Numbered from the stretch's first letter, positions 4,813 to 30,673 are shown. The stretch: DNA of 64,000 bases from Sulfurimonadaceae bacterium (GCA_041571435.1 JBFFUI010000001.1:83506-147505), one strand, 5' to 3'. Notes: generated by a model not told the origin, from the sequence alone. Numbers and translations: made by a program.

Positions 4813-6258
4813 ATGAATACAAATGATCTCAAAGAGCTGCTCAAAAAGAGCAGCAGTTCTGAAATGCTTTCACGCCGTGACGCCCTTAAACTTATGGGTA
4901 TCTCTCCGATTGCAGCCGGGGTACTAGCGTCAACATCGTCAAGTTCGATCGCTTCGGCCGAGACAGTGGATGCCAAAGGCAAGATCGTTATTGTCGGTGG
5001 CGGTGCCGGCGGCATCATGGCACTCGCGCGTCTTCGCTCTAGCCTCGAGAACCCGGACATCACTATCATCGCACCCAATGCGATGCATATCTATCAGCCC
5101 GGACAGGTCTTCCAGGCGGCCGGGCTCTATCTACATGACGATTTGATCAAACCAAACAGTGATTTCATTCCTGATGATGTCAAATGGATCAAGGATGAAG
5201 TGGCCACTTTCGATCCGGATAACAACACATTGTTGACGCGAAGCGGCGAAAAAGTCACCTATGATTACCTGGTCGTTGCAGCGGGCATTGATTACCATTA
5301 TGAGTGGATCAAAGGCTTAAAAGAGGAAGATATCGGTACAAATGGCATCTCCAGCGTTTATCTTAACAACATGGAAAAGGGAACAACTGACGGCGGTTCC
5401 ATTACGTGGGACTGGTTCAATGCGCTCAAGCTGGCTTCTGCCACAGGCCAGAAACCGCATGTCATCTACACCCAGCCCGACACCCCTATCAAATGCGGCG
5501 GTGCACCGCAAAAGTTGCTCTACCTCTCTGCGGATCATCTGAAAAAAGAGGGGCTCTCTGCCGATTATACCTTTGCGACGGCCGTTAGCAGTCTCTTTGG
5601 CCAGAAACCGATTGCCGATTCGCTGGCCGAAGTTCAAAAGCGCTACGACACCATCACCAACAAGTTCAAACACAACCTTATCGCCATCGATATTCATAAG
5701 AAGATCGCCACTTTTGAACATCGTTATGAGATCAAAGGCGAGTACGACGAAGATCTTGAAGCGTACGATACGATTGAAAAACGTGAACTGGTCGAGATGG
5801 AGTATGACTTTATTCACATCGTCCCGCCGATGAGTGCAGCCCAGTCGGTTGTCGATTCGCCGCTCGGCTGGCAGAAAGGAACGGCAAAAGGGTGGCTCGA
5901 AGTCGACAAAGAGACCCTTCAGCACCGCCGATACAAAAATGTCTTCGGTATCGGTGACGTCTGCGGCATTCCTATGGGTAAAACAGGCGGAAGCGCCCGT
6001 CACCACGCCCCTGTTGTGGTAGAAAACCTCATTTCAGTCATGCAGGGAAAAGCGGTCAAAGCAAAATTTGACGGCTACACCGTCTGCCCGCTGAAGGTGA
6101 GCTACGGTGAGATCATCATGGCCGAGTTCAACTATGACGGACTGGCTCCAAGTTTCTCATTTTTGGCGCCGGAAAAACCACGATGGATCTGGTGGGCCTT
6201 TGACCTCTATATGCTTAAACCGATGTATTGGTATTTGATGATGCGTGGATTGATGTAA
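4813..6258 (+). CDS. Tat-exported sulfide:quinone oxidoreductase-family flavoprotein (SqrB/type II-like)
   Basis: SRRDALK twin-arginine signal; GGGAGG FAD motif; KCGGAPQK and GYTVCP cysteine motifs; MYWYLM C-terminus. Confidence 0.8.
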   Translation: MNTNDLKELLKKSSSSEMLSRRDALKLMGISPIAAGVLASTSSSSIASAETVDAKGKIVIVGGGAGGIMALARLRSSLENPDITIIAPNAMHIYQPGQVFQAAGLYLHDDLIKPNSDFIPDDVKWIKDEVATFDPDNNTLLTRSGEKVTYDYLVVAAGIDYHYEWIKGLKEEDIGTNGISSVYLNNMEKGTTDGGSITWDWFNALKLASATGQKPHVIYTQPDTPIKCGGAPQKLLYLSADHLKKEGLSADYTFATAVSSLFGQKPIADSLAEVQKRYDTITNKFKHNLIAIDIHKKIATFEHRYEIKGEYDEDLEAYDTIEKRELVEMEYDFIHIVPPMSAAQSVVDSPLGWQKGTAKGWLEVDKETLQHRRYKNVFGIGDVCGIPMGKTGGSARHHAPVVVENLISVMQGKAVKAKFDGYTVCPLKVSYGEIIMAEFNYDGLAPSFSFLAPEKPRWIWWAFDLYMLKPMYWYLMMRGLM

Positions 6259-9935: not shown

Positions 9936-11570
9936 TTAGGCGATCGCAGTGAGGACAATCTCTTTGGCTTCGTCCTGTATCTGTTTGAGATGCTCGGCCG
10001 AGATGAAACTCTCCGCATAGATCTTGTAGATATCTTCTGTTCCGGAGGGGCGTGCAGCGAACCAGCCGTTGTCGGTCGTCACCTTCAGACCGCCTATCTT
10101 TGCACCGTTGCCGCTTGCTTCGATATATTTCCCGACAATGGTCTCGCCTGCAAGTGTTGTCGAGCTGACATTTTCGGCAGAGAGGTTCTTTAGTTTTGCT
10201 TTCTGCTCCGGTGTTGCAGCGGCATCGATACGGGCGTAGTAGGATTGCCCGAACTCGTTTTCGAACCCTTGGTAGATCTCGCCCGGGTCTTTTTTGGTCA
10301 CGGCTTTGATCTCGGCGGCAAGCAGGTTGAGGATGATGCCGTCTTTGTCCGTCGACCAGACGCTCCCGTTCTGACGAAGAAATGAGGCACCCGCACTCTC
10401 TTCGCCGCCGAAACCGAGACTGCCGTCATATAGACCCTCTACAAACCATTTAAACCCTACCGGCACCTCATATACCTCTTTACCTAGCGAATGGACCACA
10501 CGGTCTATCATAGAGCTCGAGACAAGGGTCTTTCCGATACGAAGGTCGTCACGCCACTGCTTACGGTGACTGAAGAGGTACCAGATGGCAACCGAGAGGT
10601 AGTGGTTGGGGTTCATCAGTCCGGCACTCGGTGTCACGATACCGTGACGGTCAAAGTCCGGATCGTTGGCAAAGGCGATATCGTACTTCTCTTTCAGGGA
10701 GATCAGTGAGGCCATGGCATAGGGTGAAGAGCAATCCATGCGGATCTTGCCGTCATGGTCGCAGCTCATAAAACCGAAGGTCGGGTCGACATGCTCATTG
10801 ACGATCTCCATGTCGAGACCGTAGACCTCTTTGATCTTTTGGTAGACCGCGATGCCTGAGCCGCCCATCGGATCAACACCGATGCGCAGGTTTGAAGCCT
10901 TGATGGCCTCAATGTCCACGATGCTCTCCAGCGCACGGACATACGGGGTGATAAAATCGAACTCTTCGATCAGGTCGCTCGCCATCGCCTCATCCAATGA
11001 CACCTTCTTGACCTCATCAAGGCCGTTGGCCAGGATCTCATTGGCACGCTTTTCAATGACAGAGGTGACATCCGTGTCTGCAGGGCCGCCGTTGGGCGGG
11101 TTGTATTTAAAGCCACCATCGCTCGGAGGGTTATGCGAAGGGGTGATGACAACGCCGTCGCTCATGACCGATGTGCCTTTATTGGCTTCAAGGATGGTAA
11201 ACGAGATCAGCGGTGTCGGGGTGTATTCGTCATCTTCGGCGATCTTGCAGCTGACCCCATTGGCAACACAGACCTGGATCGTACTCAGCTGCGCCGGTGT
11301 AGAGAGGGCATGGGTGTCTTTACCGATAAAGAGCGTTCCGGTGATGCCTGCCGACTTTCGGTACTCGCACACGGCCTGGGTAATGGCGAAGATGTGCGCT
11401 TCATTAAAACTCTTCTTGGCCGCACTCCCCCGGTGCCCAGAGGTACCAAAAGCGACCTTCTGCGTGCTGATGCCGGCATCCGGCTGTTGCATGTAGTACG
11501 AAGCGATAAGCTTGGGAATGTCTTCCAAGATGCTTTTAGGGGCTTTCCGCCCAGAGTGTGCATGCGCCAT
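9936..11570 (-). CDS. pgm: Phosphoglucomutase (alpha-D-glucose phosphate-specific, E. coli Pgm type)
   Basis: [36 protein letters not shown]. Confidence 0.95.
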
Positions 11571-11702
11571 TTTTATCCTTTTCAGTGTGTATATTGGGAT
11601 ATGCTTTTGATATCATAATCAAAAGTACATTTCAATCGACACAAATATCCTCCTTTATGCAGATGCATAAAAGATTGACGTGTCATATACGGTGAACTCC
11701 GT

Positions 11703-12326
11703 TTATTTCAAGACTGACAGTGCCTCTTTCGCCAGTGCGGTGATCTGTCCAAAATCCTGACGAACAATGGCCTCTTTCGGAACGATCCAGCTGCCGCCGA
11801 CACAGAGAACATTCTTCAGGGCCAAATAGTCCTTCATATTGTCCAGGCTGATACCGCCTGTCGGGCAGAAACGCATCTCGCTGAAAGGGCCACTGAAGGC
11901 CTTGAGCGTTGCAAGGCCGCCGACGGCAGTTGCCGGAAAGAGTTTTGCCTGCATCAAGCCGCTGTTTTGTGCAAGCATCACTTCGGAGGCGGTCGCCACC
12001 CCGGGGATAAAGGCGATTTTCTGGGCTTTGGCGCTCTCTATGAGCGCTTCGCTGATACCGGGGCTGAAGAGAAAAGCGGAACCGTGCTCGACCGCTTTTT
12101 TCAGATCGGCAGGGTTACAGACGGTTCCGGCACCGACATACATCTCGGGCATCGTTTTGGCAATAGCTTCTATCGCCTTCAGACCAGCCGGTGTACGCAA
12201 AGTGACCTCCATGATCTTGATGCCTCCTTCCAGAAGCGCTTCCGCCAGGGGCAGGGCATCTTTTTCTTCATCGATGGCGATGACCGGGACGATAGGCGAT
12301 ATTTTCATGACATCCAAAGCATTCAT
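11703..12326 (-). CDS. eda: KDPG/KHG aldolase
   Basis: EVTLRT, GAGTV, KLFPA, FCPTGGI, CVGGSW. Confidence 0.95.
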   Translation of the reverse strand: MNALDVMKISPIVPVIAIDEEKDALPLAEALLEGGIKIMEVTLRTPAGLKAIEAIAKTMPEMYVGAGTVCNPADLKKAVEHGSAFLFSPGISEALIESAKAQKIAFIPGVATASEVMLAQNSGLMQAKLFPATAVGGLATLKAFSGPFSEMRFCPTGGISLDNMKDYLALKNVLCVGGSWIVPKEAIVRQDFGQITALAKEALSVLK

Positions 12327-14152
12327 GCGCGCTCCTTGCCGGGTAGATCGAAAATGGCCGCACCCTCTTCCGCAGGGCCGACATTTTGCCGAATTGTCAC
12401 AAAAAGTTCACGGCCGAAACCGTGCCGGTTGCCGCTGAAATCGACAGGGCTGACACTGCGTCCTGCCAGCGTTGCTTCATCGACCAGAAGCGTTATTTCG
12501 CCCTTTTCTATATCCAGCCGTATCCTATCGCCACTCTGCACCTTGGCGATCAGACCGCCCTCTTCGGCTTCAGGCGTAAGATGTATCGCTGAAGGCACCT
12601 TCCCTGAAGCACCGGACATGCGCCCGTCGGTGATGATGGCCACCTTGAACCCTTTGTCCTGAAGAACGCCGAGCGGCGGCATCAGGCCATGCAGTTCCGG
12701 CATACCGTTGGCCTTCGGTCCCTGGTAGCGAACGACGGCGATAAAATCGCGTTCAAGTTCCCCCGCTTTAAAGGCCTCTTGAAGCGACTGCTGAGATTCA
12801 AAGACAATAGCCGGTGCTTCGATATAGTGTTGCGATGCTTTTAGTGCCGAAGTTTTTATAACACTCCGGCCGATACTCCCTTTCAGAAGTTTCAGCCCGC
12901 CCTCTTCACTGAATGGTGTGGCACTGCTAGAGACGACACTCTCGTCGCGCGACACTTTCGGTCCCTTTAAAAAAGTAAGTGAGCCGGATTCAAGCATCGG
13001 TTCGACGATATAATTGTGCAGTCCTTTGCCGACAATGGTCTCGACGTCGTCATGCAGAAGCCCTGCTTCCAGAAGCTGGCTGATGACAACGCTCATACCG
13101 CCCGCGTCCCTGAAATGGTTGACATCGGCCTGCCCGTTCGGATACATCCTGCAGAGCAGCGGTGTCACCTTGGAGATGGCGTCAAAATCATCCCAGTTCA
13201 AGATAATTCCCGCAGCTTTGGCCATGGCAATGAGATGAATCGTATGATTCGTCGAGCCGCCTGTGGCCATCAGACCGACGATTGCATTGACGAAACTTCT
13301 TTCATCGATAGTCTGACCGATCGGTTTATACTTTCCGGAGACCTCAGTCATACCTACAATACGCTTTGCAGCATCCTGAGTAAGGGCATCACGCAGCGCG
13401 GTATTGGTGTTGACAAAAGAGCTGTTTGGCAGCTGCAGTCCCATCATCTCGAGAAGCATCTGGTTAGAGTTTGCCGTACCGTAAAAGGTACAGGTCCCGC
13501 TGCTGTGGTAGGCGGCGGACTCGGCTTTGAGCAGTGTCCCTTCGCTCACTTTACCCTGCGCGAACTCCTGTCGGATCTTGGACTTTTCACTGTTTGAGAT
13601 CCCCGATGGCATAGGCCCTGCGGGCACAAAAACAGCCGGCAGGTGCCCAAAAGAGAGTGCTCCGATCAGCAGACCCGGTACGATCTTGTCGCAGACCCCA
13701 AGGTAGAGGGCCCCGTCATAGACGTTGTGCGAGAGGGCGATGGCGGCCCCCATTGCGATGTTGTCACGGCTGAAGAGGCTGAGCTCCATTCCCGGCTGGG
13801 ACTGTGTCACACCATCGCACATCGCCGGTACACCGCCGGCGACCTGAGCAGTAGCGCCGACATCCATCAGGGCCCGTTTGATCAACGGCGGATAGAGCTT
13901 GTAAGGTTCATGCGCCGAGAGCATATCGTTATAGGCGGTGACAATAGCAATGTTTGGCGCCACATTATGAGAAAGGGCATCTTTCTCCTGAGCGTCCATC
14001 GGGGCCATCGCGTGGGCCAGGTTGCTGCAGCCAAGCATGCCTCTGTTGACGCCGTGCGCCTGTGCAGCTGTGATCCGCGCTTTATATATGGCACGACTCT
14101 CTTGTGAACGGGTAATGATAGCCTCGGTGACTTTTACGATTATCTCATTCAT
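12323..14152 (-). CDS. edd: 6-phosphogluconate dehydratase
   Basis: CSNLAH, YNDMLSAH, AMCDGVTQ, CDKIVPG, GMPELH, TDGRMSGASGKVP. Confidence 0.97.
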   Translation of the reverse strand: MNEIIVKVTEAIITRSQESRAIYKARITAAQAHGVNRGMLGCSNLAHAMAPMDAQEKDALSHNVAPNIAIVTAYNDMLSAHEPYKLYPPLIKRALMDVGATAQVAGGVPAMCDGVTQSQPGMELSLFSRDNIAMGAAIALSHNVYDGALYLGVCDKIVPGLLIGALSFGHLPAVFVPAGPMPSGISNSEKSKIRQEFAQGKVSEGTLLKAESAAYHSSGTCTFYGTANSNQMLLEMMGLQLPNSSFVNTNTALRDALTQDAAKRIVGMTEVSGKYKPIGQTIDERSFVNAIVGLMATGGSTNHTIHLIAMAKAAGIILNWDDFDAISKVTPLLCRMYPNGQADVNHFRDAGGMSVVISQLLEAGLLHDDVETIVGKGLHNYIVEPMLESGSLTFLKGPKVSRDESVVSSSATPFSEEGGLKLLKGSIGRSVIKTSALKASQHYIEAPAIVFESQQSLQEAFKAGELERDFIAVVRYQGPKANGMPELHGLMPPLGVLQDKGFKVAIITDGRMSGASGKVPSAIHLTPEAEEGGLIAKVQSGDRIRLDIEKGEITLLVDEATLAGRSVSPVDFSGNRHGFGRELFVTIRQNVGPAEEGAAIFDLPGKERA

Positions 14153-14844
14153 CGGAAATAGACCTTTACATCAGTGACATCTTGCTGCAAGATGGAGCGG
14201 ATCGGAAGTATGTGCATATCGTCACCTTGGATCGCCTCATTATAAACGACCCGTTTCTCTTGACCCTCAAAGTGAAGATAAAGATGTTTGGCACTTAAAA
14301 TAGCCGCACGTGTCAGACTCATCCGCTCATGAGGCGCAGTTGTCGGTTTAATTGCAATACAGAGACTGCTGTTATGAAGGTCAAGCGCTTCATCGAGTCT
14401 TTCGTTACCGGGGAAAAGAGAGGCAGTGTGGCCATCTGTCCCCATACCAAGTATGACAACATCGAAAGGATAGAGCTCTTTTTCAAGCGTCTCGGTACAC
14501 TCTTTCTGCGCCGCATCTGGTGAGACGCCCTCACGATACATCCCGATGAAACGGGCTTTGGCTGCATTATCCTGAAGGAGATGTGCTTTGACAAACTGTT
14601 CGTTGCTGTCTTGATGATCGGAGGGGACCCACCGCTCATCGCAAAGACCGATAGAGACCTGTTCCCACGGCAGGTCAATACAGCGAAGTTTCTCGAAGAG
14701 CGGTTTCGGGGTGCTTCCTCCGGAGACAAGCAGCGATGCTTTTCCATTGCGGCGGATCGCTTCGACAAGGTCTTTGGCGATCTGCCCGCTCAGGTCATCA
14801 ATCAGCTCGCATTGTGTCGTAAAGGCATGCACATACTTACTCAT
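14149..14844 (-). CDS. pgl: 6-phosphogluconolactonase
   Basis: SGGSTP, DERWV, LGMGTDGHTASLFP; ATG at 14844 overlaps the zwf end. Confidence 0.95.
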   Translation of the reverse strand: MSKYVHAFTTQCELIDDLSGQIAKDLVEAIRRNGKASLLVSGGSTPKPLFEKLRCIDLPWEQVSIGLCDERWVPSDHQDSNEQFVKAHLLQDNAAKARFIGMYREGVSPDAAQKECTETLEKELYPFDVVILGMGTDGHTASLFPGNERLDEALDLHNSSLCIAIKPTTAPHERMSLTRAAILSAKHLYLHFEGQEKRVVYNEAIQGDDMHILPIRSILQQDVTDVKVYFR

Positions 14845-16300
14845 CGTGCCAGCTCCTTCCATCCCTTGCTATAAGCTGGATCGAGGCACTCGGGCCATCG
14901 GTTCCGGCCGTATAGCTCTTCATCGGAGTCAGGTTTTCAGCCCACCCTTCGATGATCCTGTCCGCCCACTTCCAGGCGGCCTCAACTTCATCAAGACGCA
15001 TGAACAGTGTCGGATTGGCACGGATAACATCCAGCAGCAGACGCTCATAGGCCTCGGGTTTACGGAGACTGTTCATCGGGGCATTAAGATCAAGCTCCAC
15101 CTGCTGAAGGCGCATCGTCTCGCTTAGCCCCGGTATCTTGTTCATCAGTTTGAGACGGATACTCTCTTTGGGCTGCAGTGTGATGACCAGTTGGTTTTCT
15201 GAAATGCAGGCACCATTGTTTGCAAAGATAGAGTGCGGCATGGTCTTAAACTGGATCACGATCTCGGAATTACGCTGACGCATCCGCTTGCCGCTTCTGA
15301 TATAGAAAGGGACCCCGTTCCAGCGCCAGTTGTCGATGTCGACACGCAAGGCGGCGAAGGTCTCCGTCGTACTGTTCTCAACCCCTTCGCCTTCAAGATA
15401 GCCCGGGACCGGTTCACCGTTGCTTGATCCTCGTGTGTACTGGGCGCGGACACTTTTCTGCTCAATATCTGCCGGCGACATGGCACGCAGTGAACGCAGG
15501 ACCTTTACCTTTTCATCACGAACGCTGTCCGCTTCGAGCGAACAAGGGGGCTCCATAGCAATAAGACAGAGCAGCTGCATCAGGTGGTTCTGTATCATAT
15601 CGCGCATCGCACCGTATTCGTCATAGTAGCCCCAGCGTCCTTCGACACCGACACTCTCTGCCACCGTGATCTGTATATGGTCGATGTTGTTGGAGTCCCA
15701 CAACGGCATAAAAAAACGGTTGGAAAAACGCAGGGCCATGATGTTTTGAACGGTGTCCTTGCCGAGATAATGGTCAATGCGGTAGACCTGACTCTCCTCA
15801 AAATAGTTCAGGACCTCTTCGTTGATAATGTGCGATGACTTAAGATCCCGGCCGATCGGTTTTTCAAGCACGACACGGCTATGCGGGGTAATGAGATCCC
15901 AATGGCTGAGCGCCTTGCAGATAGTCCCGAAAAAATCCGGCGATGTAGAGAGATAGTTGACACGTTCACGCTCGGAGTATTCATCCAGAAGCGTCTTCAG
16001 CCCTTGATAACTTGAAAAGTCAGCAAAATTGACAGCATGAACGCGAAGCCGCTGCTGAAAGGCCTCGAACTTCGCGTCATCGAATTCCCCCTCAGGTAGG
16101 AACTCCAGGAGTTTTGACTTGACCAGCGCAATATGCTCACTCTCGTCCATAACGTCACGGCTTAAGGTGATGATGCGCGAATTGGCGTTGAGATAACCGT
16201 CACTGTAGAGGAAATAGAGTGCCGGCAGCAGCTTGCGAAATGCCAGATCGCCGTGCCCTCCAAAGATCATGATGTCACAAAGGTTTTCTAATTCACTCAT
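14837..16300 (-). CDS. zwf: Glucose-6-phosphate 1-dehydrogenase
   Basis: GDLAFRKLLP, EKPIG, YRIDHYLGK, RDMIQNHL, RWNGVPFY. Confidence 0.97.
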   Translation of the reverse strand: MSELENLCDIMIFGGHGDLAFRKLLPALYFLYSDGYLNANSRIITLSRDVMDESEHIALVKSKLLEFLPEGEFDDAKFEAFQQRLRVHAVNFADFSSYQGLKTLLDEYSERERVNYLSTSPDFFGTICKALSHWDLITPHSRVVLEKPIGRDLKSSHIINEEVLNYFEESQVYRIDHYLGKDTVQNIMALRFSNRFFMPLWDSNNIDHIQITVAESVGVEGRWGYYDEYGAMRDMIQNHLMQLLCLIAMEPPCSLEADSVRDEKVKVLRSLRAMSPADIEQKSVRAQYTRGSSNGEPVPGYLEGEGVENSTTETFAALRVDIDNWRWNGVPFYIRSGKRMRQRNSEIVIQFKTMPHSIFANNGACISENQLVITLQPKESIRLKLMNKIPGLSETMRLQQVELDLNAPMNSLRKPEAYERLLLDVIRANPTLFMRLDEVEAAWKWADRIIEGWAENLTPMKSYTAGTDGPSASIQLIARDGRSWHDE

Positions 16301-16331
16301 ACCTGTCTGCCTTTTTTGCCCCTGTTAAGAG

Positions 16332-17159
16332 TTACTGTTTTTCCAATTTATAAAAGTAGTTGGTCGCTTCCACAAAACCGTCTACGCTCCCGCAGTCAAA
16401 ACGTTTGCCTTTGAACTTATAGGCGATGACCATGCCATTTTTCGCCTGTGCGCAGAGCGCATCGGTAATCTGAAGTTCGCCATTTTTACCCGGTTTCGTA
16501 TTTTCGATGACCTTGAAGATGTCCGGTGACAGGATATAACGGCCGATGACAGCAAGATTGGTCGGCGCTTTGTCAATGTCAGGTTTTTCGACCATATTGG
16601 AGACCATATAGACACCATCTTCGATCATGTTTCCTTCGATGACGCCGTACTTGTGCACCTCTTCCATCGGGACCTCCATGGTCGCGACGATACAGCATTT
16701 ATACTTGCTGTAGAGGTCTACCATCTGTTTTAAGACACCGTCGCCGTCGGGGTTGACACAGAGGTCATCTGCCAGAATAACAGCAAAAGGGTCCTGCTCG
16801 CCGACAAGGACTTTCCCTTTGTAGATCGCATCACCCAAGCCCTTCATCTCGTTTTGACGGGTATAGGTGAAGGTACATTTATCAATGATCTTGCGGATGT
16901 CTTCGAGAAGCGCCTCTTTAGATGACCCCTTGATCTGATGTTCAAGTTCATAGGAGATGTCAAAATGGTCGGTGATCGCCCGTTTTCCACGCCCCGTAAT
17001 CACCGACATGACATCACATCCGGCCTCCATCGCCTCTTCGACACCGTACTGGATAAGCGGTTTGGTCAGGACAGGCAGCATCTCTTTGGGCATTGCTTTG
17101 GTTGCAGGCAGGAACCGTGTTCCGTATCCTGCGGCCGGGAATAGACATTTTGTAATCAT
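16332..17159 (-). CDS. galU: UTP--glucose-1-phosphate uridylyltransferase
   Basis: PAAGYGTRFLPATKAMPKEMLP, VEKP, ELQITDA. Confidence 0.96.
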   Translation of the reverse strand: MITKCLFPAAGYGTRFLPATKAMPKEMLPVLTKPLIQYGVEEAMEAGCDVMSVITGRGKRAITDHFDISYELEHQIKGSSKEALLEDIRKIIDKCTFTYTRQNEMKGLGDAIYKGKVLVGEQDPFAVILADDLCVNPDGDGVLKQMVDLYSKYKCCIVATMEVPMEEVHKYGVIEGNMIEDGVYMVSNMVEKPDIDKAPTNLAVIGRYILSPDIFKVIENTKPGKNGELQITDALCAQAKNGMVIAYKFKGKRFDCGSVDGFVEATNYFYKLEKQ

Positions 17160-17202
17160 TGATTTTCCTTTTGTTGTTGTGTTTTTGGCGTTATATTACG
17201 CA

Positions 17203-18921
17203 TCAGTGTTTACCTTTAAGCCACATCATCTGATAGGGTTGAAGAGTGATCTCTCTTGTCTCGTCCAATGTAAACGAAGAGAGCAGATCATGCAGCGGAT
17301 CGATAAAATCGTCTGGAAGCTGCACCGTAACCTCCTCGTTCGAGAAGTTGTGCAGCACCACGATATATTCGCGATTATCACAGCATCGCTGGTCTATGAC
17401 AAAGAGGCGACTGTCAAGATCAAGAAATTGAAACGTTCCAAAGGGATTGAAGGCGTTTTCGTTTATGCGGATCGAGATTAGCCGTTTGTAACTGTCAAGC
17501 ATCGTCTTGGCAAGCGACCCCTGTTTTGAAAGCTCATTCTCCAGCCAATCGACATTGTACTTTTCACGGTTGATCGAACGGTTTATACCGGTGTGTTTCA
17601 CCCCGTCATGGTAGTTTCTCGAACCTACCAATGAGTGAAAGTAGATGCCCGGAACACCCGGCATGACCAAAACGGTTGCCTGTGCAAGCAGCATCCTTTT
17701 CAGACGCATCATGTCGTCTTCGTCGGGATGAGTCAGCGCATCGATGTAACTGCAGTTTAGTTCATACGGCGTTTCCGAGCCATCCTCTTCGGTCCTGTAG
17801 GAGACAAGACCGCCGTGCGACTCTATCGTCGAAACCAGATAATCGATCTCTTCGTCATTGAGGATCCCCTTGACCGGTCGCATACCGATGCCGTCATGAC
17901 TGGCGGTAAAGTTAAAAAAACAGACCTTGTCGCTCGGCAGAGTCAGGGTCTGCGCCCAGGAGGTCAAAGTTGACGTATCCCCATGCAAAATGGAGTGCAG
18001 CAGCAACGGCGGCAGCGCAAAGTTATAGACCATCTGCGCTTCGTCGTCCCCGCTTCCAAAATAAGAGACGTTCTCATGATGGGGGACATTGGTCTCCGTG
18101 ATGATAATCACCTCAGGCGCCACTTCGTGAAGCACCTCCCGCATCAGCTGGATGAGTTCATGTGTCTGCGGCAGATGCACACACTCGGTCCCGATCTCTT
18201 TCCAGATAAAAGCGATGGCATCAAGCCGGATAAGTGTCGCCCCTTTTTCGATGTAATAAAAGAGCGCATCAAGGACATTGCGCAGAACCCGGTGGTTCTT
18301 GTAATTCAGGTCGACCTGGTCCTTGCTGAACGTCGTCCAGATATTATGGATCTTGCCTTCATTATCGGTAAACTCGCTCAACAGCGGTGTCGCTCTGGGT
18401 CGGACAACCTTGCTGAGATCGGTCATAGGGTCCACTTCGATAAAAAAATCTCTAAAGTAGCTGTCACCGGAAAGGTAGGCTTTAAACCAGTCTGAAAACT
18501 GGGAGACATGGTTGATGACGCCGTCAACCATCAGACGATAATCGGCACCGATCGTTTCGATCTCGCGCCATGAGCCCATGTGCGGATCAACGGCACTGTA
18601 GTTGACGACCGAAAACCCGCTGTCAGACGAAGCCGGATAGAACGGCAGAATGTGCACCGAATTTATGACCCCATGCAGGTGATCCGTCATAAAGTCATAC
18701 AGTGTCTGCAATGAAGGTTCGTTAGCACGGTTCACCTGATCCCCATAAGTAATCAGGACAATATCTTTATGACTGAGATGATACTCGGTGGATACGATAC
18801 GCTGCTTGTATTTGAAAATAAGGTCGATAATATCGTTGACCGCTCGCTCCGCTACCTCGGGCGAATAAAGCTGGTGCAGACGCTTGTTTATGGTATGGTC
18901 TGGATCGGAGATATGTTTCAC
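17203..18921 (-). CDS. GH13_18 sugar phosphorylase, most likely glucosylglycerate phosphorylase
   Basis: LITYGD, HILPF, WTTFS, RLDA nucleophile, ITETN acid/base, ASHDGIG and PYELN loop; adjacent to gpgS. Confidence 0.85.
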   Translation of the reverse strand: MKHISDPDHTINKRLHQLYSPEVAERAVNDIIDLIFKYKQRIVSTEYHLSHKDIVLITYGDQVNRANEPSLQTLYDFMTDHLHGVINSVHILPFYPASSDSGFSVVNYSAVDPHMGSWREIETIGADYRLMVDGVINHVSQFSDWFKAYLSGDSYFRDFFIEVDPMTDLSKVVRPRATPLLSEFTDNEGKIHNIWTTFSKDQVDLNYKNHRVLRNVLDALFYYIEKGATLIRLDAIAFIWKEIGTECVHLPQTHELIQLMREVLHEVAPEVIIITETNVPHHENVSYFGSGDDEAQMVYNFALPPLLLHSILHGDTSTLTSWAQTLTLPSDKVCFFNFTASHDGIGMRPVKGILNDEEIDYLVSTIESHGGLVSYRTEEDGSETPYELNCSYIDALTHPDEDDMMRLKRMLLAQATVLVMPGVPGIYFHSLVGSRNYHDGVKHTGINRSINREKYNVDWLENELSKQGSLAKTMLDSYKRLISIRINENAFNPFGTFQFLDLDSRLFVIDQRCCDNREYIVVLHNFSNEEVTVQLPDDFIDPLHDLLSSFTLDETREITLQPYQMMWLKGKH

Positions 18922-20129
18922 GTATTATCCTTTTTAACATACTCGGAAAACTTTTCGGAAAATTCCGGCAGTACCGAACGGACGGTGATCCATGGCGAAA
19001 GCGCGGGGACGCCCATCGGATCCTGATAGAACTCCTCTGCCGCCTCTTTGATGGCACATTCAAATGCCTCAACCGCATTGATCTCTTTTTCCCGGTTATA
19101 TTTGAGTGCGTTGAGTTTGCTTAAGGCGTTGTATTTGGAGATCTCGAAACGCGACTCCTGAAAATAGGTGGCCAAAAGCGTTTTAAACGAGGCCTCAGAG
19201 AAGATAATACCCTCTTGCGCCAGGACGCGAAAGAGGGTCTTGGCAATATCATTTGCCATTTTATAGACACCGTCGCAGGAGTCCTGACTGCCGAGCTCCT
19301 GATGTTTGTGCTCGTAACTCTCCATAATCTCTGTCTGGCAGATACGTCTGTTGGAGGTGTTTTTATAGACTTCACTGAGTGTCGAGACCTCCAGTCCCCA
19401 TGTTGGCGAGATACCGATACCCCGTCCCAGCGAACGGATAAAGGCGAACTCTCCCGAAAGCGAGTAACGGAAGCTCTCCATGTAATCGAGGTACCGGTTG
19501 CTGCCGAACACTTTGACCAGCGAGTGCACAAGAGGCGAATAGAAGAGGCGTGTCACGCGTCCGTGAAGTTTGTCGGTGACACGGGAGTAAAAACCTTTAT
19601 TGAACTCAAAGTCCAAGGCCGGGTGGACAATAGGGAAAAAGAGTCTTGCAGGAACCTCGCGGGTGTAGTTGACAATATCACAGTCATGCAGTGCAAACGC
19701 ATACGCATCGACATCGGTCAGACCATACCCCAGCATAGTCCAGACGTTACGCCCCTTACCCGGTGTGTCAAGACCAGGAAACCCTTCACTGGTCAGTTGG
19801 GCATAGAGCTCTTGTATTCGCGGTCCGTCGTTCCACAGGACATCGACCTCACAAGGCAGGACCGACATCAGCTCTTTGACCTCTTCAAACTGCTCTTTCG
19901 TCGCACGATCAAGTCCAAGAATGATCTTGTAGAGGTAGGTCACCCCTTTAAGCTCTTCGATGATCCTGTACATAGCCGGGGTCTCAAACTCTGAGTAAAG
20001 GGCCGGAAGAAGAAGGACCATCCGCCGGCGTTTACCGTACTCTTTCAGCTCTAATTCCATCTCTTCGAGTGATCTGTCACCCAGTTTCTGCAATGTCGTA
20101 ATGACACCGTTTTGAAAAAAGTCAGCCAT
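18918..20129 (-). CDS. gpgS: Glucosyl-3-phosphoglycerate synthase (GT81)
   Basis: MADFFQNGVITTL N-terminus, GKGRNVW, HDCD, GRVTRL, WGLEV, YEHKHQ. Confidence 0.85.
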   Translation of the reverse strand: MADFFQNGVITTLQKLGDRSLEEMELELKEYGKRRRMVLLLPALYSEFETPAMYRIIEELKGVTYLYKIILGLDRATKEQFEEVKELMSVLPCEVDVLWNDGPRIQELYAQLTSEGFPGLDTPGKGRNVWTMLGYGLTDVDAYAFALHDCDIVNYTREVPARLFFPIVHPALDFEFNKGFYSRVTDKLHGRVTRLFYSPLVHSLVKVFGSNRYLDYMESFRYSLSGEFAFIRSLGRGIGISPTWGLEVSTLSEVYKNTSNRRICQTEIMESYEHKHQELGSQDSCDGVYKMANDIAKTLFRVLAQEGIIFSEASFKTLLATYFQESRFEISKYNALSKLNALKYNREKEINAVEAFECAIKEAAEEFYQDPMGVPALSPWITVRSVLPEFSEKFSEYVKKDNT

Positions 20130-21441
20130 TAAGTTCTCCTTGTTTTATATTTGGCTCGACCACCATCATGACGATATCGAGCAGGTTGTTGTGGGTCGGA
20201 CCCGGCATGAGCAGTTCGCCTGTCTTGGCGAAAAAAGCGTTGGAGTCAAAGGTCTCAAGATAGTATATCGGATCGATTCCAAACGCTTTCGCATTGATAC
20301 GGCTGTTCGTGTCTATAAGTGCCCCCGCCGCATCCGAGTTGCCATCAACACCATCAGTTGCAGCACTCAAAAAGGAGATCTCCGTCTTGCCGCTAAGTGC
20401 CAGCATCACACAGAGTGCCAGATGCTGGTTCCGGCCGCCCCGACCGTCACCTCTTACATTGACAGTCGCCTCACCGCCGAGAATAAAGCAGTGTCTCTCC
20501 CCCTCATAGCTCTCGGCCAGCTCAACCAGCGACGCCGCAAGTTCGTTGGCATCACCTTGAAGCGGTTTTGATACAAGTGTCGTTGCAAGCCCGGCCGTTT
20601 CCAGCAATTCTCTGGCCCTGTTGATAACAATAGTGTTCGAACCGAGGATGAAGTGACGGATACCCTTCTTCTCCGATTTCGGCGTCTCGGGATGTTTTCC
20701 CTCTGCACCTTCGCGTAAAAAGTGCTGTACACCCTGTGGCAGACTGTCGAACAGTGCAAACGACTGAAGTGACTTGATGGCATCTGCAAAGGTCGTCGTA
20801 TCAAAATAGAGCGGTGCAGAACCGATGGCGTGGAGATCATCGCCCAGTACATCCGAAAGAACAAGGACAATCCCTTTGGCTTGCGTACACGCAGCCAGCT
20901 TCCCGCCTTTGACACGCGAGAGATGCTTGCGAACGCAGTTTATCGCTTCGATAGGCATACCACCTTTGAGCATTATCGATGTCGTTGCCTGAAACTCTTC
21001 CAAAGTGATCGATGCCTCCGGAAGTTCGACCAGAGCAGAATTCCCGCCCGACAGAAGATAGATAAAAAAGTCATCTTCACCCAGACTTTCCAACTTTTTC
21101 CTCAAAGCATTAGCCGCTTTTACGCTGTTTGTCGTTGGAAGCGGATGGGTGCTTTTAATGTAGTGTGTTCCGTCAGGGAGAGCACTCTTCTCATAGGCCC
21201 CTACGATCAAGGTATCAGCGATCTTGTCGCCCAGCAGGCCCTGTACCGCTTCGGTCATCGGCAAAACTGCTTTACCCGAACCGAGAAGGTGTATCTTTTT
21301 ATACGGCTTTAATGCAATAGCCGTATCGTTTACCGTCAAGGTCTCATCCTCATAGCAGCACTGCTCTGCAATAAGATTTTGCGGTTTGATCTCTTCGATC
21401 AGTCTGTTAAAGGTGTTGAACAGCAGCTTTTTAGTGGACAT
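20122..21441 (-). CDS. Glycerate 2-kinase (MOFRL/TtuD, class II)
   Basis: GKA, HPLP, LLSGG, RKHLSRVKGG, SDVLGD, GGRNQ, TDGVDG. Confidence 0.88.
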   Translation of the reverse strand: MSTKKLLFNTFNRLIEEIKPQNLIAEQCCYEDETLTVNDTAIALKPYKKIHLLGSGKAVLPMTEAVQGLLGDKIADTLIVGAYEKSALPDGTHYIKSTHPLPTTNSVKAANALRKKLESLGEDDFFIYLLSGGNSALVELPEASITLEEFQATTSIMLKGGMPIEAINCVRKHLSRVKGGKLAACTQAKGIVLVLSDVLGDDLHAIGSAPLYFDTTTFADAIKSLQSFALFDSLPQGVQHFLREGAEGKHPETPKSEKKGIRHFILGSNTIVINRARELLETAGLATTLVSKPLQGDANELAASLVELAESYEGERHCFILGGEATVNVRGDGRGGRNQHLALCVMLALSGKTEISFLSAATDGVDGNSDAAGALIDTNSRINAKAFGIDPIYYLETFDSNAFFAKTGELLMPGPTHNNLLDIVMMVVEPNIKQGELNG

Positions 21442-22204
21442 TAAAATACTCCTTAAGCGCTTCATTCCACCCTTTTGGACCGGGGAAAGGGGCTTTCACA
21501 AGGGACGCAATATCGCAAGTGATATAACTGCCGTCAGGATGCGGTATAAGGATCGGGGTGTCAATACTTTGCAGCATTGTCAGATCGTTTTCGCTGTCGC
21601 CCAGAGCAATGCTTTTGTAAACTGTCCCGCTCGCTTTTTCATAACGCTCAATCAGTTTCTTAATGGCAGATGCCTTGTCTTGCCCTTTGGTGATAAGGTG
21701 ATAAAAACGTCCCCCTTTCACAATGTCAAAACCGTCTTCTTCTGCCAACGCTTTTAATGGCTCAAGATCACCGTCGTATTCAAGGACAAAGGGCTCGCTG
21801 AAGGTACGGTCTTTGGCTTTGGCAGCCGCATCATATGCAAGGCCTGTCCGCTGAGCTATCTCTTCGACAGACATGTCAAAAAAACCCCGCATCGGTACGG
21901 TTTCGGCATACTTGTCAAAAAAACGACGTGTTTCCGCATAAAGCGTACCAAGCGCGATCATCGTGTAGCTCCCCTTTTCAGGAATAAAGATACCTGCCCC
22001 GTTTTCGATGATAAAAGGGTCACTGATGCCCAAGGCACTCTGAAGCTCTATCACCTCGCCTTTAGTCTTGCTGGTCACGATGATCAAAGGGATGTTATTC
22101 TTTTTGATGTATTCAATCATCGGAAGTGCCGGTGCATAACTGTAGCTTCCATGGTCAAGCAGCGTACCGTCAAGGTCGGTAAATATCAAGGTGTCTGATA
22201 ACAT
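21431..22204 (-). CDS. gpgP: Glucosyl/mannosyl-3-phosphoglycerate phosphatase (HAD-IIB)
   Basis: FTDLDGTLL, TSKT, ENG, GGRFYH, LGDSENDLTML, GPKGW. Confidence 0.85.
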   Translation of the reverse strand: MLSDTLIFTDLDGTLLDHGSYSYAPALPMIEYIKKNNIPLIIVTSKTKGEVIELQSALGISDPFIIENGAGIFIPEKGSYTMIALGTLYAETRRFFDKYAETVPMRGFFDMSVEEIAQRTGLAYDAAAKAKDRTFSEPFVLEYDGDLEPLKALAEEDGFDIVKGGRFYHLITKGQDKASAIKKLIERYEKASGTVYKSIALGDSENDLTMLQSIDTPILIPHPDGSYITCDIASLVKAPFPGPKGWNEALKEYFNVH

Positions 22205-22461
22205 AATGGTACAGTATAACTTATAATGCTTATTTATATTTCACAAGGCTGTATATAATTTAAACATCTACTGTTTATTTAAGACATCACACCTGTCTTC
22301 CCGTGCCTGCAGACTATAGTAGACATGCATATCGATAGGGTTACAGACGTATCTCAGGAGCGAAACATTTTGCTGCTTTATAGTTGCGTTGGAAGTACGC
22401 ACTAAAGGCGTGTGTCACGAGCCGTTCTGGTCATTTTTGGTACGAAAACGGGTGCTCTTTT

Positions 22462-29510: not shown

Positions 29511-30119
29511 CTATTTTTTAGGCGCGGGGTATTTTGCTTTGATCCTGTCGACAAAAGCGGCACACTCTTTTTGAAGATGTTTAAGGTCAAGCGAGTTATC
29601 GATCACCCATGTCGCCCGTGCCTTCTTCTCATCGATCGGCATCTGCGAGGCGATGCGGCGCTTGGACTCCTCTTCACTGTACCCGTTGCGTTTCATAAAG
29701 CGTTCCAGCTGTACATCGGCAGGGGTATAGACCACAACCGAATCCTTTATATCGTAGGCATTGCTCTCGAAAAAAAGAGGGATATCGATCAGATAGGGGT
29801 ACTTGAAGCTGTCCTGTTTCTCGCTTTGGCGTTCGATCTCTTCACGGATCAGCGGGTGCAGAAACGCTTCAAGCTCCTCTCTCTTCTTCTTGTCGGCAAA
29901 GACAACTTTTCCCAGGGCGGGACGGTCGACTTTACCGCGGGGCGTAATAAACGCTTCTCCGAAGTGCTCTTTGACCCAAGCCGTGTTTTGGTCAAGGATC
30001 TTATGCGAGATAGCATCGGCATCGATAATACGCAGACCGCTTAGACCCAAAAGAGAGGCGACAGTACTCTTGCCTGTTGCAATACCACCAGTCAAAGCGA
30101 TCGCGTATTTGAATGCCAT
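29511..30119 (-). CDS. coaE: Dephospho-CoA kinase
   Basis: LTGGIATGKST, IDAD, LHPLI, DIPLFFE. Confidence 0.96.
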   Translation of the reverse strand: MAFKYAIALTGGIATGKSTVASLLGLSGLRIIDADAISHKILDQNTAWVKEHFGEAFITPRGKVDRPALGKVVFADKKKREELEAFLHPLIREEIERQSEKQDSFKYPYLIDIPLFFESNAYDIKDSVVVYTPADVQLERFMKRNGYSEEESKRRIASQMPIDEKKARATWVIDNSLDLKHLQKECAAFVDRIKAKYPAPKK

Positions 30120-30673
30120 CAGTTTTTAATAATGCCTAGGTAGGTTTTACGGATGTAGTTCGGTGTTGCGAACGCTGCCGGGTGGATGTCACAGTTATAG
30201 TACTGTTGACCATCAAGCATGTCTGCTCGGTGCAGGATGATATCCGCTGTCGGGTGATAGGCTTTGGAAGCGAGCAGCAGGGTTTCACCATTACCGATGT
30301 AATACGGCATGATGATCTTGAAATAGTTCCCGATGATCCCCATCAGATTTTTGTTGTCCGCTTCATTGTCAAGAGAAGGGTGCTTCATAACGACAAGGCC
30401 GTCATCGGTTAAGATACGGTTGACGTGGGCAATGGCTGCCGCATCCTCTGTCATGACATCCATCAGGACAACGTCTGCCGAACCATCCGGTTCGCCGCGC
30501 AGAGATGTCATCAGGTCTGCTGCCGGAACAGTTTTGCTCTTCATTGAATCGTGGCGGGCCACTTCCCTCTCAAGTGCGGTAGCATCGTCGCTTACAATCA
30601 GTACGTTTTCTGGTTTTTTTACTGTACACAGTGGAACGTGTACCATCATCTCCGGATAAATAAACTCTTTCAT
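30119..30673 (-). CDS. Short spermidine synthase-like protein
   Basis: FIYPEMMVHVPL and YYNCDIHPAAF; lacks the N-terminal domain and the GGGDG motif. Confidence 0.75.
   Translation of the reverse strand: MKEFIYPEMMVHVPLCTVKKPENVLIVSDDATALEREVARHDSMKSKTVPAADLMTSLRGEPDGSADVVLMDVMTEDAAAIAHVNRILTDDGLVVMKHPSLDNEADNKNLMGIIGNYFKIIMPYYIGNGETLLLASKAYHPTADIILHRADMLDGQQYYNCDIHPAAFATPNYIRKTYLGIIKN

Follow-up and report, generated by a model that had tools for sequence, protein, structure and literature searches.

Background

The closest described relatives of the gene cluster treated here are the loci of glucosylglycerate (GG) phosphorylases, the E. coli member of which, YcjM, is cited as a characterised enzyme in two reviews (PMC7178133, PMC11009771). 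Genes encoding a glycerate kinase, the synthase of glucosyl-3-phosphoglycerate (gpgS) or the corresponding phosphatase (gpgP) frequently accompany those of the phosphorylases (PMC7178133), and the core formed by synthesis, phosphorylase and glycerate kinase is already published, being known through the same two reviews. The present work concerns a cluster of ten genes in a 64,000-nt stretch of DNA (hereafter, the window) from Sulfurimonadaceae bacterium (GCA_041571435.1 JBFFUI010000001.1:83506-147505), in which that core lies beside the genes of the Entner-Doudoroff (ED) pathway. We consider it rather probable (about 0.6) that this cluster is an operon for making and recycling GG joined to the ED genes, and the genomes give good support to the view that glucose derived from GG leaves through the ED pathway.

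In genome papers on Arcobacter, Sulfurovum and Sulfurospirillum, a complete ED pathway together with a missing hexokinase or an incomplete glycolysis has been taken as potential glucose use. Arcobacter anaerophilus IR-1 is reported to have the pathway but to lack hexokinase and not to grow on glucose (PMC4584990); in Sulfurovum the pathway is described with the oxidative branch of the pentose phosphate route absent (PMC13609358), and in Sulfurospirillum it has been regarded as glucose degradation (PMC11406935). As regards osmolytes, proline has been reported to be a major one in S. denitrificans (PMC6079173), and a study on osmoadaptation in Sulfurimonas and Sulfurovum deals with proline, glutamate/glutamine and ectoine, no word starting with "glucosyl" occurring in its main text (PMC11800652).

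A literature search, judged from titles and the opening of abstracts and with subscription journals and bioRxiv supplements outside its reach, found no paper linking GG with this phylum or with the ED pathway, nor any paper text pairing glucosylglycerate with arcobacter. An earlier, sequence-only reading of this DNA had known of no description of the complete unit in Campylobacterota: this has to be narrowed, since the linkage of synthesis, phosphorylase and glycerate kinase is in print (PMC7178133, PMC11009771), and it stands for the fusion with the ED genes, on which no paper was found.

Organisation of the cluster and assignment of its enzymes

Ten co-oriented open reading frames (ORFs) on the minus strand fill positions 9936-22204 of the window, in the order and at the positions that the sequence-only reading had given (coordinates are those of the longest ORFs). 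They comprise gpgP, for a HAD-IIB glucosyl/mannosyl-3-phosphoglycerate phosphatase (21431..22204); the gene of a class II (MOFRL) glycerate 2-kinase, glxK (20122..21465); gpgS, for a glucosyl-3-phosphoglycerate synthase of the Methanococcoides/Persephonella type (18918..20129); the gene of a GH13_18 GG phosphorylase (17203..18921); galU, for UTP-glucose-1-phosphate uridylyltransferase (16332..17159); zwf, for glucose-6-phosphate dehydrogenase (14837..16300); pgl, for 6-phosphogluconolactonase (14149..14862); edd, for phosphogluconate dehydratase (12323..14152); eda, for KDPG aldolase (11703..12326); and pgm, for alpha-phosphoglucomutase (9936..11570). The junctions are mostly overlapping or very short, as had been claimed: the first three, from gpgP to the phosphorylase gene, overlap by 35, 8 and 4 nt and those from zwf to eda by 26, 4 and 4 nt, which makes six overlaps among nine junctions, while two more are gaps of 43 nt (phosphorylase-galU) and 31 nt (galU-zwf) and the last, between eda and pgm, measures 132 nt. 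No terminator-like site was found in the 31-nt galU-zwf gap, and the arrangement of the genes suggests that the cluster is co-transcribed as one operon. No hexose kinase or permease gene lies within it, in agreement with the sequence-only reading, which had noted the lack of a glucokinase and of a sugar permease.

Profile scores were judged against the curated NCBIfam cut-offs (in bits), which are exceeded by seven of the proteins: GalU (TIGR01099, 387.9 against 326.8), Zwf (TIGR00871, 575.9 against 400.6), Pgl (TIGR01198, 190.9 against 124.45), Edd (TIGR01196, 959.9 against 708.25), Eda (TIGR01182, 256 against 156), Pgm (TIGR01132, 877.6 against 778.05) and GpgP, a phosphatase of the MPGP family (TIGR01486, 223.6 against 164.75). 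An ED pathway is thereby encoded, with Edd and Eda over their cut-offs beside Zwf and Pgl. The only other relative of Edd in the genome is an IlvD-like gene of 30% identity, and Pgm is the sole copy of its type, a tblastn search of the genome giving only distant PMM/GlmM paralogues. GalU has a 71%-identical paralogue on another contig (C64), and the galU of the cluster would then be a dedicated second copy. GpgP carries HAD motif I (DxDGT) as an N-terminal DLDGT and matches MpgP (3ztw, E 1.1e-32) and also YedP (1xvi) in the PDB. The glycerate kinase has the DUF4147 plus MOFRL architecture in Pfam, with PDB matches to 2b8n (E 1.2e-65) and 1x3l (E 5e-64); it matches the glycerate 2-kinase model NF041176 with E 8.5e-66, below the cut-off, and the family name points to 2-phosphoglycerate as its product.

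The phosphorylase is 45% identical over 524 aa to YcjM, which is annotated in RefSeq as a glucosylglycerate phosphorylase; its closest solved relatives are GH13_18 phosphorylases, and RLDA, ETN and HDG, which we take to be residues with catalytic roles, are kept in its alignments. Two marks have been given for strict GG phosphorylases, a (T/S)ETN motif and a glutamate in loop A where other clades have glutamine (PMC7178133). Both are found here: the translation reads IIITETNVPH, at a place where a gap and different residues stand in the sucrose phosphorylase 7qqj, and a PYELN stretch aligns its glutamate region to the IYQ of the glucosylglycerol phosphorylase 7xdq and of 7qqj. The protein is thus predicted to be a glucosylglycerate phosphorylase (EC 2.4.1.352, GH13_18).

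GpgS matches the model NF040724 over residues 3-402 of 403 (E 1.5e-94) with 317 bits, the cut-off of 700 not being reached. None of 27 diverse relatives of GpgS reaches it either (best 481), which shows that the model is narrow. A single-sequence search of the PDB with GpgS gave no match; a profile of 40 family members, searched against all solved-structure sequences, found seven distinct ones at E <=1e-12, including 7p5l, 4y6n, 3e25 and 3f1y, and all of them are GpgS or the MpgS of 3f1y. Moreover, homologues of the window protein carry the name GpgS at JGI. The context, namely the adjoining GG-type phosphorylase and galU, supports glucosyl rather than mannosyl transfer, and the dedicated galU points to UDP-glucose as the probable donor. 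Taken together, the NCBIfam, Pfam and PDB matches and the signatures of the phosphorylase bear out the chemistry and the ten gene identities proposed from the sequence.

Proposed route of synthesis and breakdown

In the proposed route, fructose-6-phosphate from gluconeogenesis would be converted to glucose-6-phosphate by Pgi, encoded elsewhere in the genome, and further to glucose-1-phosphate by Pgm and to UDP-glucose by the dedicated GalU. GpgS would join UDP-glucose to 3-phosphoglycerate, and GpgP would dephosphorylate the product to GG. For breakdown, GG phosphorylase would release glucose-1-phosphate and D-glycerate at the expense of phosphate, with no ATP spent; the class II kinase would convert glycerate to 2-phosphoglycerate, and Pgm, Zwf, Pgl, Edd and Eda would turn glucose-1-phosphate into NAD(P)H, pyruvate and glyceraldehyde-3-phosphate. 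A single pgm and the dedicated galU would therefore serve both directions. For each GG, phosphorolysis would save the ATP of hexose activation and the glycerate would cost one ATP; by textbook stoichiometry, the yield would come to three pyruvate, two reduced nicotinamide cofactors and net two ATP.

According to this scheme, GG probably accumulates in the cell and the flux probably runs in the direction of breakdown through the ED pathway; a role of GG as a reserve of carbon and reductant, besides that of osmolyte, is speculative. Since synthesis and breakdown are placed in one unit, their control must act after transcription, through salt, phosphate or substrate levels, or else a futile cycle would follow.

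Recurrence of the linkage in related loci

One genome per species was scanned with the phosphorylase, and the best 80 of 149 confirmed matches corresponded to 79 distinct loci, the counts being limited by the available flank (at least 3.4 kb upstream, n=70; at least 7.3 kb downstream, n=59). The loci come from Sulfurimonadaceae (97% identity, the closest among the matches listed), Sulfurovum, Sulfuricurvum and Arcobacter/Halarcobacter, and also from Flavobacteriaceae, with phosphorylases of 75-78% identity. The genes gpgP, glxK and gpgS precede the phosphorylase gene in 69/70 loci and galU follows it in 57/73; edd is present in 23 of the 59 loci scored downstream, the set zwf-pgl-edd-eda in 22 and all ten genes in 8. 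The linkage is thus more than chance, the same gene order recurring in other genomes. Homologues of the phosphorylase or of GpgS were found in Halarcobacter anaerophilus, Arcobacter arenosus, Malaciobacter pacificus and Sulfurimonas sp. HSL3-7, and a protein named for A. anaerophilus is 79% identical to the window phosphorylase.

The fusion of GG and ED genes, for which the sequence-only reading had proposed a synteny search, recurs in several architectures. The ED genes may be attached after galU, as in the window; in L098 they directly follow the phosphorylase gene, in L078 they come behind an inverted pgm, and in L119 and L124 they lie upstream of gpgP. In Arcobacter loci pgm and then pgi are found, and elsewhere pgi directly flanks the GG cassette. 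A tree of Edd (36 rows, none of them from Helicobacter or Campylobacter, and rooted only at the midpoint, without an outgroup) mostly follows the families, the loci of the upstream type (L119, L124) forming a separate deep clade; the two deep clades of this midpoint-rooted tree fit more than one GG-ED joining event. Furthermore, a natural fusion protein of 991 aa (P0244) carries GpgS in residues 3-405 and a TETN-bearing GH13_18 phosphorylase, 43% identical to the window enzyme, in about 467-991, so that synthesis and phosphorolysis are placed on one polypeptide. Such a fusion indicates that the pairing of GpgS and phosphorylase has been selected, and says nothing on how the pair is controlled.

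Within the same set of loci, the genes of the cassette differ in their degree of identity to those of the window. In loci of Flavobacteriaceae (Wenyingzhuangia, Flavicella and Ochrovirga; L075, L091, L093-L097, L099, L104, L106 and L121), gpgS and the phosphorylase are 75-83% identical and gpgP and glxK only 32-45%, with no galU or ED genes alongside, which looks like a transfer of the gpgS-phosphorylase pair between phyla. Likewise, in loci of the Halarcobacter type (L076, L077, L087, L088, L098, L100, L101 and others) gpgS and the phosphorylase show about 75-86% identity, gpgP 41-46% and the glycerate kinase 30-34%, the values for gpgP and glycerate kinase in other Arcobacter loci being 54-60% and 50-52%, respectively; in the Halarcobacter type, distant versions of gpgP and of the glycerate kinase gene appear to have taken the place of the earlier ones. 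Finally, a contig labelled Candidatus Scalindua (L142) bears a 61%-identical phosphorylase, within 10 kb of which none of the nine remaining genes occurs; this could be an isolated copy or the result of faulty binning.

Co-occurrence of the two pathways in the phylum

The sample covered 401 genomes of the phylum, GG phosphorylase being used as the marker of the GG cassette. The phosphorylase was found in 14 of them, Edd in 69 and glucokinase in 62. Two families (f2 and f3), which appear to be the Helicobacter- and Campylobacter-like, host-associated groups, leave 125 of the 401 genomes outside, and all 14 GG-positive genomes are among these 125. Outside the two families, Edd occurs in 9/14 GG-positive genomes against 4/111 GG-negative ones, that is, some 18 times more frequently (odds ratio 48, related genomes not being independent). 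The nine genomes with both Edd and GG represent five genera and four families. In five of the nine the ED and GG loci are unlinked, and the association between both pathways consequently does not rest on adjacency alone.

The sequence-only reading had set the cluster against the glucose-using ED loci of Helicobacter and Campylobacter, and the sample agrees with this contrast. In f2 and f3, Edd and glk occur in one and the same set of 56 genomes, and in both genomes checked (G017 and G085) the two genes are about 2 kb apart, whereas outside these families glk accompanies Edd in only 3/13 genomes. No glucokinase or sugar permease was found among the scanned neighbours of nine ED loci outside f2 and f3; these neighbours included one sodium-dependent transporter and four proteins without a family match. 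Regarding other exits for hexose phosphate, phosphofructokinase (PFK) is present in 7/7 GG-positive Sulfurimonadaceae, the window genome included, and in 0/7 GG-positive genomes of other families. Six of the seven GG-positive genomes without PFK have the ED pathway, and 13/14 GG-positive genomes have one or the other.

The rest of the genome

Judged by marker genes, the assembly of the window genome (2.16 Mb, 66 contigs) has a completeness of 100% and a contamination of 0.81%. Searches of this genome did not find glucokinase (PF02685), ROK or BadF/BadG-type kinases, nor GlgA or glycogen phosphorylase (GlgP), 6-phosphogluconate dehydrogenase (Gnd), the GntP permease or SoxB; Pgi, PFK and an ATP-citrate-lyase domain are present. 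None of these kinase families having been found, there is no known enzyme for phosphorylating imported hexose, and, as no Gnd was found, 6-phosphogluconate can go only to Edd. Given that no recognisable hexose kinase, glycogen enzymes or Gnd were detected, the natural substrate of the ED pathway is most likely hexose phosphate coming from GG. On the other side, PFK and Pgi are present, and hexose phosphate could leave here by a way other than the ED pathway.

A check for glk, glucose permeases and glgABC had been proposed together with the first reading. Its outcome is favourable as regards the kinases (glk, ROK, BadF/G) and GlgA/GlgP, and not so for the permeases: an unlinked permease of the major facilitator superfamily and the GluP/NagP family is encoded on contig C12 (31801-33078), with 237.9 bits against a cut-off of 202.55 for TIGR01272 and NagP as best match. 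A GluP-like permease is present in 11/17 genomes tested of one family (f1), whatever their ED or GG status, and in 5/10 f1 controls lacking both; it is absent from all ten genomes tested outside f1, nine of them Edd-positive. Its presence goes with the family f1 and not with the ED pathway. The gene next to that of the permease on C12 encodes a Cof-type HAD phosphatase, and no kinase for hexose or N-acetylglucosamine was recognised in the genome.

The organism had also been described, from the sequence, as a probable sulfur-oxidising autotroph. Autotrophy is supported by the ATP-citrate lyase; with SoxB not found, the case for sulfur oxidation relies on an ORF resembling sulfide:quinone reductase (SQR) and on the names of relatives. 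That ORF, at 4813-6258 of the window, encodes an SQR-like flavoprotein which scores 187.7 bits with the model of the selenoprotein subtype of type III sulfide:quinone reductase, for which the cut-off is 525.

Control signals, spacers and borders

A -10-like box, TATACT, lies on the minus strand at 22213..22218, 8 nt before the ATG of gpgP, and the same hexamer stands 6-9 nt before the ATG in 10/12 aligned upstream regions. On reading the upstream sequence no Shine-Dalgarno was seen before gpgP, which suggests, with a start site placed from the sequence, that the gpgP transcript is leaderless or near-leaderless. About 32 nt before the box, at 22251..22265 on the minus strand, there is a motif, GTTTAAATTATATAC, that is a candidate promoter element or operator. 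Exactly or with few changes, it is found in most of the 12 aligned upstream regions; the genome contains one exact copy and two further sites with 2 mismatches, and this conservation suggests a control site specific for the cluster. No sigma-54 -24/-12 element was seen by eye in the 257-nt upstream region, no formal scan having been made. Within the cluster, the spacer between eda and pgm (11571..11702, minus strand) holds two inverted repeats able to form hairpins, TCTTTTATGCA...TGCATAAAGGA and CTTTTGAT...ATCAAAAG, one of which was scored as terminator-like (11674-11651).

Beyond the 257-nt gap upstream lies the co-oriented gene of an RND/HpnN-like transporter, and downstream the convergent pair glmM-lspA; both flanks are unrelated to the cluster. 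The GC content of the zwf-pgm half is 53.2%, against 47.7% for the genome, within the top 3.4% of 6.4-kb windows; horizontal transfer of this half was considered on such grounds and discarded, the signal being too weak to call. Elsewhere in the window, a 184-aa ORF (30119-30673) matches spermidine synthase in two pieces, its start corresponding to profile positions 60-105 and the remainder to the C-terminal end of the profile, which suggests a shortened or rearranged speE.

Weighing of the alternatives

Several observations weigh against an operon for making and recycling GG with the ED pathway as its outlet. The presence of synthesis and breakdown in one operon implies a futile cycle unless further control exists; two hairpins separate eda from pgm, and consensus scans gave promoter-like sites (13 against 12.7 expected) and terminator-like sites (16 against 12.6) at chance level. 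GpgS stays below its curated cut-off, and its glucose/mannose specificity and sugar donor are predictions. As to metabolism, PFK and Pgi would allow the hexose phosphate to be drawn off by the Embden-Meyerhof route, and a GluP/NagP-like permease is encoded in the genome. In related organisms, 36/59 loci have no adjacent ED genes and 5/14 GG-positive genomes lack Edd, from which it follows that the ED pathway is not needed for GG turnover in general; conversely, 4/13 Edd-positive genomes outside f2 and f3 have no GG phosphorylase, and there the ED pathway has another substrate. Finally, the authors of a Prochlorococcus preprint discuss compatible solutes as energy store and conclude that GG is not used more as a store (10.1101/2024.05.01.591941), and those working on Mycobacterium hassiacum do not regard GG as an important reserve of carbon there (PMC5381378).

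Some of these facts can be accommodated by assuming that GG is only an osmolyte provided with a recycling valve, next to which the ED genes are found through the shared node of glucose-1-phosphate and glucose-6-phosphate; the ED pathway would then serve mainly as a gluconeogenesis-ED loop for NAD(P)H, or take hexose phosphate from the turnover of envelope sugars, instead of burning a GG store. The frequent placing of pgi, pgm and galU at the flanks of GG cassettes without ED genes agrees with such a node, as do the four of 13 Edd-positive genomes devoid of GG phosphorylase, the existence of PFK as another exit and the position of Zwf as sole dehydrogenase of its branch, no Gnd having been found. 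This assumption, however, does not account well for the roughly 18-fold higher frequency of Edd among GG-positive genomes (9/14 against 4/111), for a GG-ED linkage that arose in more than one architecture, or for a zwf starting only 31 nt after galU, and we regard this explanation as unlikely, though deserving of weight. Much less probable is the use of external glucose, N-acetylglucosamine or gluconate by the ED pathway, by means of the GluP/NagP-like permease, which is not linked to the cluster, and of some kinase whose family went unrecognised, with the GG genes adjacent by accident. The C12 permease does exceed the TIGR01272 cut-off with NagP as best match, and papers on free-living Campylobacteria take the ED pathway as glucose degradation (PMC11406935); nevertheless, the genome, whose completeness by marker genes is 100%, yielded neither GntP nor any glk, ROK or BadF/G kinase, the permease is missing from 10/10 genomes tested outside f1 (9 of them Edd-positive) and present in 5/10 f1 controls with neither ED nor GG, the scanned neighbours of nine ED loci outside f2 and f3 gave no match to a glucokinase or sugar permease, and glucose does not serve as a substrate for A. 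anaerophilus IR-1 (PMC4584990). A locus of the pathogen type, with glucokinase and permease linked to the ED genes, was rejected, since the genome has no glk and the permease is unlinked on C12.

It might also be thought that the phosphorylase is chiefly synthetic, forming GG from glucose-1-phosphate and glycerate as a cheaper second route beside GpgS/GpgP, in a cluster that would be mainly anabolic. The reaction is reversible and has been used for synthesis in vitro (PMC11009771), and the fusion of GpgS with the phosphorylase could be read in the same sense; but a kinase that removes glycerate adjoins the phosphorylase in 69/70 scorable loci, no source of free glycerate was found in the cluster, and the phosphorylase is taken as the only known possible GG sink in many producers (PMC7178133), so that this direction seems highly improbable. 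A catabolic locus for exogenous GG, like the ycj locus of E. coli, was discarded as well, as there is no transporter and the synthesis genes are present. The operon for making and recycling GG, with the ED pathway as the outlet of the glucose moiety, is thus the reading that we prefer.

Implications

The linkage to GG may explain the retention of the ED pathway in free-living relatives of Campylobacter unable to phosphorylate glucose: both linkage and co-occurrence point to an internal substrate instead of external glucose. Moreover, a nitrogen-free osmolyte may have escaped notice in this phylum, which is dominant at sulfidic interfaces, and the named species with homologues of the phosphorylase or of GpgS make the reading testable in culture.

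A more far-reaching proposal, which is tentative and in our opinion rather doubtful, is that GG could be the main mobilisable store of carbon and reductant, as well as a nitrogen-free osmolyte, in those autotrophic Campylobacterota of the reductive tricarboxylic acid cycle that lack glycogen and hexokinase. The ED pathway of the free-living members would then chiefly burn GG, which would rank with polyglucans and polyhydroxyalkanoates as a third type of carbon reserve in bacteria, and phosphate-dependent phosphorolysis would be the fast switch making a single operon for synthesis and breakdown workable.

Comparison with known systems

As regards synthesis, the route in two steps, by GpgS and GpgP, that is known from Methanococcoides burtonii and Persephonella marina (cited in PMC3736172) relies on the same GpgS family (NF040724) and on a HAD-type phosphatase; the window GpgS is a distant member of this family, with its 317 bits against the 700-bit cut-off. 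The GG operon of Prochlorococcus (10.1101/2024.05.01.591941) likewise belongs to an autotroph and unites synthesis and recycling, but it adjoins a putative transporter, the organism has glycogen, and there is no fusion with ED genes.

The ED loci of Helicobacter and of glucose-positive Campylobacter belong to the same phylum and also have zwf, pgl, edd and eda in a cluster. In loci of that type glk is found about 2 kb from edd, whereas no glk was found in the window genome and the GG genes stand beside the ED genes instead.

Finally, the GG phosphorylase loci of Meiothermus silvanus, Spirochaeta thermophila and E. coli (YcjM) share with the present cluster the GH13_18 family, the TETN motif, the loop-A glutamate and the proposed role as a sink for GG recycling. 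The E. coli ycjM gene adjoins an ABC importer, suggesting an external substrate, while the window cluster has no transporter. What distinguishes the latter from the published GG phosphorylase loci is the joining of zwf-pgl-edd-eda, here and in 22/59 related loci (with pgm too in 8), in genomes without glucokinase.

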